DNA of 35,991 bases from Nitrospirota bacterium (GTDB lineage: Bacteria; Nitrospirota; Thermodesulfovibrionia; Thermodesulfovibrionales; JdFR-85): contig JAADGU010000011.1 in the NCBI GenBank assembly GCA_013152195.1, forward strand, positions 1 to 35,991, read 5' to 3'. Within the stretch, counting starts at the first letter, position 1. The number at the start of each line of letters is the position of its first letter. This document shows positions 33,823 to 35,991 of this stretch, in pieces. The notes under the pieces were generated by a model that saw nothing but the letters and a program-made list of their open reading frames with translations, was not told the DNA's origin and did no database searches. The translations under genes were made by a program, and so were the position numbers.

Positions 33823-33981
33823 TGGCAGAATATTATAACACAGTAAATTGTATTACGGCTATTTAACCGGATTCCTCAAACCTCCGGCCGGGAGTTTTCT
33901 TTATTTTTATTTTGTTTCGGGGTATAATTGTTATATACAGCAGTTTCTTCGGGGGTAAGTCTTGATTCAGGGGGGAGAAAG

Positions 33982-34737
33982 ATGAATCCGTGTTTTACAC
34001 GCTGCTTATCCAGGGAAGATGCCGTTTATCTTCTTGAGCTGATCCACGAGAGTCTTTCCTGTAATACAAAAGAGGAACTGGCGGAACTAATGAAGAAACT
34101 GGGAGACCTGGTTCCATACGACTTTGCCATTTGCCTGCTTGGTAAAAAGGAGGTTGGCGGTATGGTAAAGATATATAATCCTGTAAACATAAACTATCCT
34201 GCTGAATGGATTGAGCTTTACTTTGAGAGAAATTTTCAGGAGATTGATCCTGTTGCCAAAGAGAACTTTACCCATTTCAGGTTGCAGAGATGGTCTGATA
34301 CGTATAGACTAACTGGCCCTCCTCCGGAATTCCTCTCACTTGCTGAGGATTTTGGACTTGATGAGGGCTATACACACGGGGCGAGGAATTTCAATGCAAC
34401 CAAGGGAAGTCTGTTTTCTCTATCCGGCAGATCAATAGAACATAACAATCGCACTGATGCTATATTAGAACTTATTGTGCCACACTTTCATCAGGTTCTC
34501 GTACGTATTGTAGCCCAGGATGAGAGAAAGAACAGGATTGCTCTTTCTCCAAGAGAAAGAGAAGTGCTCAGCTGGATAAAAGAGGGGAAAAGCACGTGGG
34601 AGATATCAATAATTCTTGGTGTGAGTGAACGAACAGTAAAGTTTCATGTCTGTAATGTCATGCGAAAGCTCGATGCTGTGACCAGGACGCATGCTGTTGC
34701 CATTGCAATTGAGCAACGGTTGATTGATATTGAGTGA
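33982..34737 (+). CDS. luxR: LuxR-family AHL-binding transcriptional regulator
   Basis: Autoinducer-binding residues in NYPAEWIELY (W, Y), IDPV (D, P), RW and EGY (G), plus HTH LSPREREVLSW..EGKSTWEIS.IL..SERTVKFH; ATG 33982 after GGGGAG. Confidence 0.95.
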   Translation: MNPCFTRCLSREDAVYLLELIHESLSCNTKEELAELMKKLGDLVPYDFAICLLGKKEVGGMVKIYNPVNINYPAEWIELYFERNFQEIDPVAKENFTHFRLQRWSDTYRLTGPPPEFLSLAEDFGLDEGYTHGARNFNATKGSLFSLSGRSIEHNNRTDAILELIVPHFHQVLVRIVAQDERKNRIALSPREREVLSWIKEGKSTWEISIILGVSERTVKFHVCNVMRKLDAVTRTHAVAIAIEQRLIDIE

Positions 34738-35407
34738 ACCATCTCATCATTTCCGGCCGTTTTGCTGAACTCAGGATTTCAAATTCTCTCCAGTCCAATA
34801 CTACTGCCATGGCAGTAACACCGTCAGGCATTGCCTTTGGGCTGCCTATCAATTTGTATGGAAACCCCTTTGCACAAAATAGTCTGAAGACCTTCTCTTC
34901 TGTAACTGCATAAAGATATCGTATGCCATTCTTAATGCACCAGTGATAGATACCTTTAAAGAGAAATGTGCTGATGTCGTGGATTCCGTAATTGCCTTTA
35001 ACCTTGGCATTTCTGGCCTCAGGTGCTACGCAGAGTCTCGAGATTTCCGCCCTGTTGCTCTTCCTCTTGATCTTGTGATCAGGCCCAACGAGTGATAGAA
35101 ATTCCTTCTCCAGCATGAAAGGCTTTTCAGACGTTATTAGTCTGAGATATGCTAATAGCCTGTTCTCTCTGTCAAGTACACCAAAGAAGACTGCATGGTT
35201 ATCATATTCATCGATTTCCAGGAGCACTTCACTTTCACTTACCCACCTTAACTCCTGACAAAATATCCTGTATCGTAAGTGATGTGCCTGGATTTTCTCT
35301 CTCTCATATTCCAGGTTTTTGACAATAATATCCCCCTCGCAGATTAGGATAAAAGAGTCAGCCGGGTTTCTGGTGTTGTTCCAGCTGTTGCTTTTAAACG
35401 GTAATAT
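34658..35407 (-). CDS. luxI: LuxI-family acyl-homoserine lactone synthase (non-canonical or lost start codon)
   Basis: Manual translation: frame open from 35419 and includes LRYRIFCQELRW (R, F, W), EIDEYD, LRL, FML..EF, EISRL. The first canonical start (GTG 35227) lies downstream of the first motif; ATA at 35407 has a purine-rich SD. Confidence 0.9.
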   Translation of the reverse strand: MLPFKSNSWNNTRNPADSFILICEGDIIVKNLEYEREKIQAHHLRYRIFCQELRWVSESEVLLEIDEYDNHAVFFGVLDRENRLLAYLRLITSEKPFMLEKEFLSLVGPDHKIKRKSNRAEISRLCVAPEARNAKVKGNYGIHDISTFLFKGIYHWCIKNGIRYLYAVTEEKVFRLFCAKGFPYKLIGSPKAMPDGVTAMAVVLDWREFEILSSAKRPEMMRWFTQYQSTVAQLQWQQHASWSQHRAFA

Positions 35408-35445
35408 TTCTCCGCCCCCTCACCTTTATTGAGTATGAACGGGGG

Positions 35446-35485
35446 CATAAAAGTCACCTGTTCTTCTGGACAGGTGACTTTTATG
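35446..35485. promoter_or_regulatory. lux box (35456-35475) within a 40-bp palindrome
   Basis: ACCTGT-TCTTCTGG-ACAGGT matches the 20-bp lux box ACCTGT-N8-ACAGGT; arms extend to CATAAAAGTCACCTGT / ACAGGTGACTTTTATG (16 bp, perfect). Confidence 0.9.
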
Positions 35486-35534
35486 GTAAAACGTGGTACA
35501 TCTATAGGTAGAGCTGCAAAAGGGGGGCAAGAGT

Positions 35535-35991
35535 ATGGGGGAAGAGTTTTCTATATCGAAATCTGCAGTTATTGATGCGAGCACAGGTTCGGTTTGGAGG
35601 GTTGTGGCAGATCCATTAAATGCGGCTATTTATCTTGATTCTGTAATCAATGTTAGAAGAGTAGAGGGTAATCTATACCTGCTGAGAGAAGTTGTTGCCC
35701 CTGAAAGAGAGGGTAACTTGACAATGAGTGAATGTCTGATGGAGGTGATCGAGTATGAAGAGAAGAAGAGCCTGATGTTCCGTGTTTATCTTGACTCTGT
35801 CAGACGAAAGGAGTTTGGTTTCCGGCTGGAGCCAAGGGGGAGAGAAAAGACAAAGATTACCTGCCTGGTTAAAAGGAACTTTGTGAGCGCAAGGAACGGA
35901 GAGATCGGTAGGGAAATTAATTCAATAATAAATAAAATTGCACGGATGGCGATGAAAAGGCCATCCACCCGCAGGATTTCAAAATTTGAAG
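35535..35991 (+). CDS. SRPBCC/START (polyketide cyclase-like) domain protein, runs off the window end
   Basis: Absent from the ORF track (no stop in window). Manual translation MGEEFSISKSAVIDASTGSVWRVVADP...MEVIEYE..KSL.F...FRLEPRG.EKTKIT fits the SRPBCC pattern; G-rich SD upstream. Confidence 0.7.
   Translation, partial: MGEEFSISKSAVIDASTGSVWRVVADPLNAAIYLDSVINVRRVEGNLYLLREVVAPEREGNLTMSECLMEVIEYEEKKSLMFRVYLDSVRRKEFGFRLEPRGREKTKITCLVKRNFVSARNGEIGREINSIINKIARMAMKRPSTRRISKFE

Follow-up and report, generated by a model that had tools for sequence, protein, structure and literature searches.

The DNA analyzed here, called the window below, is a stretch of 35,991 nucleotides (nt) from a Nitrospirota bacterium (contig JAADGU010000011.1 of assembly GCA_013152195.1), and towards its far end the minus strand carries a luxI-type gene for an acyl-homoserine-lactone (AHL) synthase that has no canonical start codon where one would be expected. 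The reading that we favor, with a probability of about 0.8, is that this is an intact and selected luxI gene whose translation starts at the near-cognate codon AUA at 35407-35405, behind the Shine-Dalgarno (SD) sequence GAGGGGG and on a short leader transcribed from a lux-box promoter. Comparison with related sequences suggests that the AUA, or AUC in some relatives, has been inherited within the luxI clade of a genus of hydrothermal-vent Nitrospirota and is not a private mutation of the genome from which the window was taken.

The luxI reading frame, its product and its annotation

The luxI frame is open from an in-frame TGA (35422-35420) to the stop codon at 34660-34658, a total of 253 codons, and at its head the minus strand reads AATAAAGG TGA GGG GGC GGA GAA ATA TTA CCG TTT AAA. 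The first-pass annotation of the window had stated that no in-frame ATG, GTG or TTG lies 5' of the essential N-terminal motif, and this is borne out by the listing of open reading frames (ORFs), in which the first such codon is GTG 35227-35225, 3' of the conserved LRYRIFCQELRW motif. The stretch between the TGA and this GTG encodes HHLRYRIFCQELRWVSESE, and it is here that the LRYRIFCQELRW motif is located. The observation that the ATA sits 7 nt past an SD-like sequence was likewise correct, with AAGGTGAGGGGG (35426-35415) being followed by the 7 nt CGGAGAA and then by the ATA, which is the sole codon with one mismatch or less from ATG between the TGA and residue 17. The codons ATT 35329, ATT 35326 and CTG 35314 are all in the luxI frame. 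From the codon usage of the genome, in which ATG, GTG and TTG together make up 4.7%, a run of 60-64 internal codons free of canonical starts is expected about 5% of the time, so that the bare lack of a canonical start is not rare; it becomes meaningful because homology places the N-terminus of the protein 5' of the first canonical codon.

By its profile match, its N-terminal Arg/Phe/Trp block and its predicted GNAT-like fold the product is assigned to the LuxI-type AHL synthases. The Pfam family Autoind_synth (PF00765) matches residues 37-210 of the 253-residue translation of the open frame at 69.9 bits, against a cut-off of 24, and the match begins well 5' of GTG 35227. A total of 134 LuxI homologues were found, most of them 240-256 amino acids (aa) long and the nearest with 91% identity and 249 aa; the best 120 of these were listed and aligned with MAFFT. 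Among these 120 the number of residues that precede the Leu of the LRYRIF motif has a median of 43, lies between 36 and 52 in 104 and is exactly 43 in 23, and the protein read from the ATA has 43 residues ahead of this motif, equal to the median for its homologues. An alignment of 16 sequences puts the ATA column at or beside Met-1 of the long homologues. Residues L44, R45, F49, L53 and W55 are invariant in an alignment of 46 sequences, and we take this block to have a role in substrate binding; a protein begun at GTG 35227 would be without the invariant R45, F49 and W55.

An AlphaFold2 model computed from the 46-sequence alignment has a predicted local distance difference test (pLDDT) score of 87.1, and its top Foldseek matches in the PDB are TofI, BjaI, RpaI, LasI, MesI and EsaI, with E-values of 3e-12 to 7e-8. 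Residues 1-15 of the model are disordered and are followed by confidently predicted strands at 21-24 and 27-31 and by a helix (35-52), with R45, F49 and W55. The strand at 21-24 (pLDDT ~95) is encoded 5' of every downstream candidate start codon. Residue 13 of LasI aligns with residue 33 of the query, the present family of LuxI proteins being about 20 residues longer at the N-terminus than the solved enzymes, and the extension (residues 1-26, encoded at 35330-35407) is modeled as the disordered tail plus an extra strand, 21-24, that pairs with the first classical strand.

The first-pass annotation had also expected that automated annotation would truncate the gene, which turned out to be so for some pipelines and not for others. 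The IMG database and other callers give this gene and its relatives lengths of 189, 229, 217, 218 and 206 aa, the 189-aa call (P0122) being that of IMG for the window's gene, whereas the NCBI annotation of this contig has a 249-aa luxI product from the ATA, with the N-terminus MLPFKSN (P0121). An ATA start for this gene is therefore already present, by homology, in public annotation. The NCBI protein for the orthologue in G006, the closest relative (P0001), equals the translated DNA except for a Met in place of the ATA-encoded Ile. The shorter relatives are truncations made by gene callers: the call for the homologue P0002 (229 aa) takes as its start a TTG, codon 21 in the same open frame, and those for P0004 and P0005 begin further inside the frame, at GTG and TTG, respectively.

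Start codons and selection among the relatives

The search for orthologues covered 61 genomes, the window's own and 60 relatives; close ones turned up in no genus but that of the window, and four further luxI start regions came from one metagenome scan. The nine distinct start regions that could be compared, which draw on five genomes of the genus and four metagenome contigs, are those of the window, G006, G004, G001, L019, L020, L022, G007 and G002, the last of which is identical to the metagenome locus L021 across the aligned stretch. A scan of genome contigs for luxI returned only a C-terminal fragment, from G002. Comparison of the codon in close orthologues, which the first-pass annotation had named as a check, gave ATA in seven of the nine (the window, G006, G004, G001, L019, L020 and L022) and ATC in the other two (G007 and G002), with a canonical codon at this position in none (0/9). 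The identity of the LuxI proteins to that of the window is 91% for G006, 68% for G007 and 53% for the outgroup G044, which has AAGGAGGG, 7 nt and then an ATG at the homologous position; in two other genomes, G036 and G049, in-frame ATGs likewise stand where the frame begins.

The sequence TGAGGGGGCGG is invariant, 6-8 nt 5' of the ATA or ATC, in all nine start regions, and the SD element is retained in the ATC clade although the DNA further upstream is unalignable there. The first 27 codons counted from the ATA or ATC are free of in-frame stops in 9/9 sequences, with 0-4 stops in the other two frames, and the sole length difference between the ATA and ATC clades is 3 nt, or one codon. The position of the first canonical codon varies by species, from a TTG at codon 21 through GTG or TTG near codons 33-37 to a GTG at codon 61. 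Together with the alignment to Met-1 of the homologues and the NCBI annotation, the ATA or ATC in 9/9 start regions and the invariant SD support the earlier suggestion of non-canonical initiation at ATA 35407. The comparison comprises only 2-3 independent lineages, and the protein P0003, which falls inside the luxI clade (support 96/93), is the sole member of the clade whose gene call has a Met at the start position.

The TGA that closes the frame on its 5' side is out of the luxI frame in two of the nine distinct sequences, L018 and L022. One extra A precedes the ATA in L022, in P0126 and in a contig from the sequencing run X1, which puts the TGA out of frame and leaves the luxI frame open upstream through the lux box; gene callers start this variant at a GTG inside the lux box, with a product of 266 aa (P0126).

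Ratios of nonsynonymous to synonymous substitution (dN/dS) were computed by the Nei-Gojobori method for six full-length orthologues (window, G006, L019, L020, G007 and L021). Codons 61-249 gave values of 0.069-0.200 in 14 of the 15 pairs, the fifteenth being saturated, and dS values above 1 separate the ATA clade from the ATC clade. The body of luxI is under purifying selection. Over the first 60 codons a defined ratio was obtained for 10 pairs; nine of these have 0.12-0.57, and the tenth, which has only two synonymous differences, has 1.28. The coordinates of the gene, of its candidate start codons and of the features that surround them are collected in Table 1.

Table 1. Features of the luxI locus (positions in the window)
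Feature	Position	Strand	Basis or remark
luxI-type AHL synthase, coding sequence from ATA, 249 aa + stop	34658..35407	-	Pfam, homologues, fold, NCBI
ATA, proposed non-canonical luxI start	35405..35407	-	aligns with Met-1 of homologues; conserved among orthologues
SD-like GAGGGGG, part of TGAGGGGGCGG, 7 nt 5' of ATA	35415..35421	-	invariant in 10/10 aligned sequences
TGA closing the luxI frame on its 5' side	35420..35422	-	in frame in 7/9 distinct sequences
GTG out of the luxI frame (other species: ATG), first codon of a 9-codon ORF spanning SD and ATA	35421..35423	-	sequence and alignment
ATT ATT, alternative luxI start candidates, codons 27-28	35324..35329	-	in frame; inside predicted strand 27-31
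GTG, first canonical in-frame luxI codon, giving the 189-aa call	35225..35227	-	ORF listing; IMG protein P0122
-10-like hexamer CATACT (inferred), with CTCAATA just 3' of it	35432..35437	-	reading of sequence and alignment
lux-box palindrome ACCTGT-N8-ACAGGT	35456..35475		perfect match; conserved in all orthologous loci
luxR-type receptor gene, convergent; 3' end overlaps luxI by 80 bp (34658-34737)	33928..34737	+	Pfam
SRPBCC/Polyketide_cyc2-like gene, divergent; shares a 127-bp intergenic region with the lux box	35535..35990	+	ORF listing

Alternative readings of the gene start

Translation might instead start at ATT 35329, ATT 35326 or CTG 35314, in which case the protein would have about 220 aa, its N-terminus would match those of classical LuxI proteins and the upstream 26 codons would be a 5' leader. 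The ATT pair is preceded by a GAGGGGG of its own, the classical enzymes begin near codons 21-27 when they are placed by the LasI alignment, and the first 26 codons, with the disordered residues 1-15, are weakly constrained. These three codons were among the candidates of the first-pass annotation, and while they do lie in the luxI frame they are not kept in the ATC clade, where TTC GTC or TTT ACC stands in place of ATT ATT and a conserved Glu-Gly is encoded by the GAGGGG in front. The differing places of the first canonical codon from species to species, the frame that stays open from the ATA or ATC in 9/9 sequences with an indel of exactly 3 nt, the confident strand at residues 21-24 and the presence of the extension in 104 of the 120 homologues all argue further against a downstream start, which we regard as unlikely. 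Another possibility arises from the base that precedes TGAGGGGG, which is a purine in 10/10 aligned sequences, so that every one of them has an out-of-frame GTG or ATG (RTG) beside the SD. In the window the ORF that it opens (35395-35423, minus strand) begins one base before the in-frame TGA and has 9 codons, GTG AGG GGG CGG AGA AAT ATT ACC GTT TAA, and translation might begin at this RTG (35423) and reach luxI by a programmed +1 shift, or else a regulatory upstream ORF of 9-12 codons might be coupled to luxI. Besides the conservation of the purine, such a reading can draw on the likeness of the AGGGGG just 3' of the RTG to the stimulatory SD of the prfB frameshift site (prfB of this genome has the usual CTT TGA) and on a predicted transcription start close to the RTG. 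The distance from the RTG to the ATA or ATC, however, varies: seven distinct sequences have 16 nt, G001 (L018) has 15 nt and L022 has 17 nt, and no single shift would serve all three; the 17-nt form is also found in the X1 contig, at a depth of ~1170, and, judging from the N-terminal sequence, in the intact 266-aa P0126. Unlike prfB, the RTG has no fixed phase and is followed by no site of the CUU UGA type, in which a slippery codon stands next to an in-frame stop; the rare Arg codons AGG, CGG and AGA come after it with no re-pairing evident, and no SD lies 5' of it. A purine would be expected there equally for the start of a transcript, and the RTG may simply mark that start. A shift or a coupled upstream ORF seems to us very unlikely.

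Two further readings deny the ATA a function as a start codon. According to one, the gene is a start-loss null allele (ATG>ATA), as raised in the first-pass annotation, or a decaying pseudogene, which would leave LuxR as the receptor of an "eavesdropper." ATA is one transition away from ATG, and luxI does decay in this genus, where an internal deletion (G001 and G004) or the loss of residues 1-116 (G003) has left the luxR frame open and where no luxI was found in G005. The non-AUG codon is nevertheless present in 9/9 distinct sequences, six full-length genes included, and dN/dS stays at 0.07-0.20 across a synonymous divergence that is saturated, with the SD and the lux box invariant. Because a gene that had lost its start would not retain this constraint, luxI is not taken to be such a gene, and the signal-negative allele, a non-AUG codon being common to species with saturated synonymous sites, is a highly improbable explanation. 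According to the other, which the first-pass annotation also mentioned, the consensus base at 35405 is wrong and the true codon is ATG. In favor of an error, the metagenome-assembled genome (MAG) is 78% complete, the ligA frame appears broken and the frames for MutL, DnaE and a solute-binding protein lack N-terminal parts. At this codon, however, ATA or ATC was obtained in independent assemblies from eight other organisms or populations, which leave the error barely credible. Contigs of relatives from four hydrothermal-vent runs likewise have no change at 35405-35407 among 40 of the 364 rows of differences; nearby, those 40 rows contain 35404 A>C, by which TTA becomes GTA as in the relatives, and a single additional base that X1 has in a run of A.

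Several observations weigh against initiation at the AUA or against the restraint on signal output that we attach to it below. An out-of-frame GTG or ATG is conserved beside the SD. Classical LuxI enzymes are about 20 residues shorter, and the catalytic domain would still be complete if translation began near codon 27. Constraint on the first 26 codons is weak (pairwise dN/dS 0.14-1.8), which matches the variable N-terminal tail of the family and is the main limitation of the argument for translation from the ATA; with residues 1-15 predicted to be disordered as well, selection alone is no proof that this part is translated. The NCBI call is driven by homology rather than by experiment. A crude genome-wide count of SD-plus-codon combinations found no enrichment of ATA (24), ATT (25), ATC (20) or CTG (24) over ordinary codons. 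There is no RNA run among the listed sequencing runs that match this genome, and in the search of sequencing runs the best one holds 0.14 of the sampled words, the source reads not being among those found. Finally, the notion of a throttle may be wrong, for in one study an AUA-started messenger RNA with an optimized initiation region was as active as its AUG counterpart in vitro at 20-40 degrees C (PMC5499595).

Promoter, proposed mechanism and genomic context

The luxI gene is paired at the same locus with a LuxR receptor gene and a lux box. The latter lies 49-68 nt 5' of the ATA, which leaves no room for a canonical start upstream, and it is the one perfect match to ACCTGT-N8-ACAGGT in the 1.58-Mb assembly, where 8 sites with one mismatch compare with 3 for a control pattern. 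Across the luxI orthologues the conserved upstream palindrome has the form (C)ACCTGT-N8-ACAGGTGACTT, and an invariant CTCAATA block is also present upstream of the gene. The palindrome at 35456-35475 resembles the Vibrio lux box, the usual placement of which is about -42.5. Because of this placement the luxI transcript is predicted to start near 35418-35426, so that only the SD-bearing leader would remain in front of the AUA. A simple promoter scan called no promoter at the lux box or at CATACT and found no terminators, Rfam gave no match at E-values up to 1 in 34500-35991, and the leader together with the early luxI coding region folds no better than shuffled sequences (z = -0.99; 33 of 200 shuffles fold as well).

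According to the mechanism that we propose, LuxR and its signal would activate the lux-box promoter and a transcript with a short leader would be made, on which the SD element GAGGGGG, 7 nt upstream, would hold the 30S subunit at the AUA. The ordinary initiator tRNA would pair with two of the three bases of this codon, and proofreading by initiation factor 3 (IF3) would make initiation inefficient. The product would be a LuxI of the family-typical 249 aa, for which we infer Met as the first residue. None of the 25 tRNAs detected in the genome is an unusual initiator; three have a CAT anticodon, one of them with an initiator-like GGG/CCC anticodon stem. The weak codon would lower the yield of LuxI per transcript, or make this yield dependent on IF3 and on guanosine tetraphosphate (ppGpp), or both, and either effect would restrain the positive feedback through LuxR and the lux box. 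The AUA codon would in this manner throttle the output of signal.

The published measurements that bear on such a throttle differ in size. AUA, AUC, AUU and CUG initiate in E. coli at 1-2% of the level of AUG, and a protein started at AUC carried an N-terminal Met (Hecht et al., 10.1101/063800); older reports cited in PMC5499595 put the level at 5-7.5% of AUG and describe a loss of ~85% for an AUG>AUA mutant of phage T4. The same paper reports that nutrient limitation and ppGpp strongly repressed all messenger RNAs with a non-AUG start (PMC5499595). A more tentative idea, which we consider possible though rather doubtful, is that selection keeps AUA or AUC as a translational gate, through which the output of LuxI would track the translational or metabolic state of the cell and set the threshold of autoinduction. 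The codons in question would be those that IF3 rejects and that nutrient limitation and ppGpp depress most, and the repeated deletion of luxI in the genus, with luxR kept, would be in keeping with signal output as an evolutionarily tuned variable.

Well-studied genes provide partial precedents for such a start. E. coli pcnB has an AUU start and is reportedly limited at translation (Binns and Masters), the weak codon keeping the enzyme scarce; luxI, for which such a limitation is predicted, resembles it in having a weak start codon and differs in the codon itself (AUA or AUC), the class of gene and the phylum. To our knowledge very few AUH start codons (H standing for A, C or U) have been confirmed by experiment in bacteria. 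The IF3 gene infC, with AUU, AUC or AUA, is like luxI in having a near-cognate AUH codon behind a good SD that is kept among relatives, and its AUU or AUC is described as the target of autoregulation by IF3 (PMC5499595). Since LuxI has no role in translation, a dependence of luxI on IF3 would in contrast be a one-way gate with no autoregulation. For E. coli, 10.1101/063800 counts pcnB and infC as the only two confirmed non-canonical starts. Vibrio fischeri ainS is another acyl-homoserine-lactone synthase gene for which no canonical start can be placed, and conserved ATT starts with a conserved ribosome-binding site have been proposed for it (PMC5601948); AinS belongs to the LuxM/AinS family and its codon is ATT, whereas the present gene belongs to the LuxI family and has ATA or ATC, and the ainS start is likewise a proposal. 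For lacI the choice of a single start codon, GTG, is reported to be selected for and to determine how much of a circuit component is present at the basal level (PMC11445065); there, the codon is one of the canonical starts of bacteria, and the effect was shown by experiment. The LuxI/LuxR feedback of V. fischeri shares with the window a 20-bp palindrome 5' of the synthase gene and an adjoining receptor gene of the LuxR family; the differences are that the two genes are convergent here, with an 80-bp overlap of their 3' ends, that the host belongs to the Nitrospirota and that the synthase has the N-terminal extension of ~20 residues. Among the papers listed in a search, none was found that pairs luxI with a non-canonical start codon, the nearest being the ATT proposal for ainS (PMC5601948), and a search for AHLs or luxI in Nitrospirae or hydrothermal settings turned up nothing in titles and abstract snippets that points to this clade.

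If the proposed start is correct, the conserved AUA or AUC of a signal synthase gene that a lux-box promoter drives would amount to a simple single-base restraint on positive feedback, and the start codon might couple signaling to the state of growth. The value of the finding would lie in a testable link between the choice of a start codon and the threshold of quorum sensing. Gene callers that accept only ATG, GTG and TTG shorten this family of LuxI proteins to 189-229 aa, at the cost of the essential N-terminal block, so that metagenomic surveys of AHL synthases can mistake the genes for fragments.

The relatives of the window's genome include some in which luxI has been largely removed. The luxI genes of G001 (L018) and G004 (L017) have in common one in-frame internal deletion of residues 52-186, with the same junction, and in G003 (L006) the luxI leader (GGGE) is fused to residue 117, residues 1-116 being gone; all three retain luxR as an open frame of 257-269 codons. 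The luxI search in G005, a genome that is 86% complete, gave no match. In this genus, then, the gene for the signal is lost repeatedly while that for the receptor stays, and the signal-negative relatives with an intact luxR arose by deletions, in contrast to a change of start codon.

Other genes in this genus also point to non-canonical starts. The most regular of them is infC (G000:C32:1756, L027; L044-L048), which has GGAGGTG, 5 nt and ATA in 6/6 genus genomes, with a TTG that lacks an SD further upstream in some of them; an AUA start for the IF3 gene is likely in this genus. A PAS-domain histidine kinase gene (G000:C4:17875, L028; L039-L043) has GAGGTGTAGYC followed by ATA in 6/6 genomes, and in the genome of the window the PAS domain has already begun when the first canonical codon is reached, 132 codons into the frame; this case is less clean, a TTG or ATG being found 3-4 codons further in for 4/6 genomes. 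In ksgA (G000:C72:4007-4786, L035) the RrnaAD domain begins at residue 5, only ATC or CTG stands behind TAAGGAG and the first canonical codon comes 33 codons in. From these alignments AUA initiation is probably used in the genus for infC at least, and for a few other genes. A codon-usage screen for genes without starts gave 11 candidates, luxI itself falling below the filter, and Pfam matches divided them into two likely cases of a non-canonical start (one histidine kinase gene and ksgA), the known frameshift of prfB, four frames that look broken or N-terminally incomplete and four that are compatible with their canonical start. The prfB gene (G000:C145:16450-16600, L029) has the classical +1 site, CTT TGA in the context AGG GTA TCT TTG A, and served as a positive control for the screen. 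Among the broken frames, that of ligA (G000:C4 ~9700, L033) shows ...EEYDRLFF in one frame and RLKELEGKY in the next, and those of MutL, DnaE and a solute-binding protein (L030, L031 and L036) are without their N-terminal parts; the four would be either indel errors of the MAG or pseudogenes.

The genes that flank luxI in the window complete the picture of the locus. The luxR-type gene has matches to Autoind_bind (77.2 bits) and GerE (70.7 bits), and its real start may be the ATG at 33982. Given the overlap of the luxI and luxR 3' ends, the transcript of each gene would be antisense to the end of the other. The divergent SRPBCC-like gene on the far side of the lux box has a match to PF10604 at 23.3 bits, below the cut-off of 27.4.

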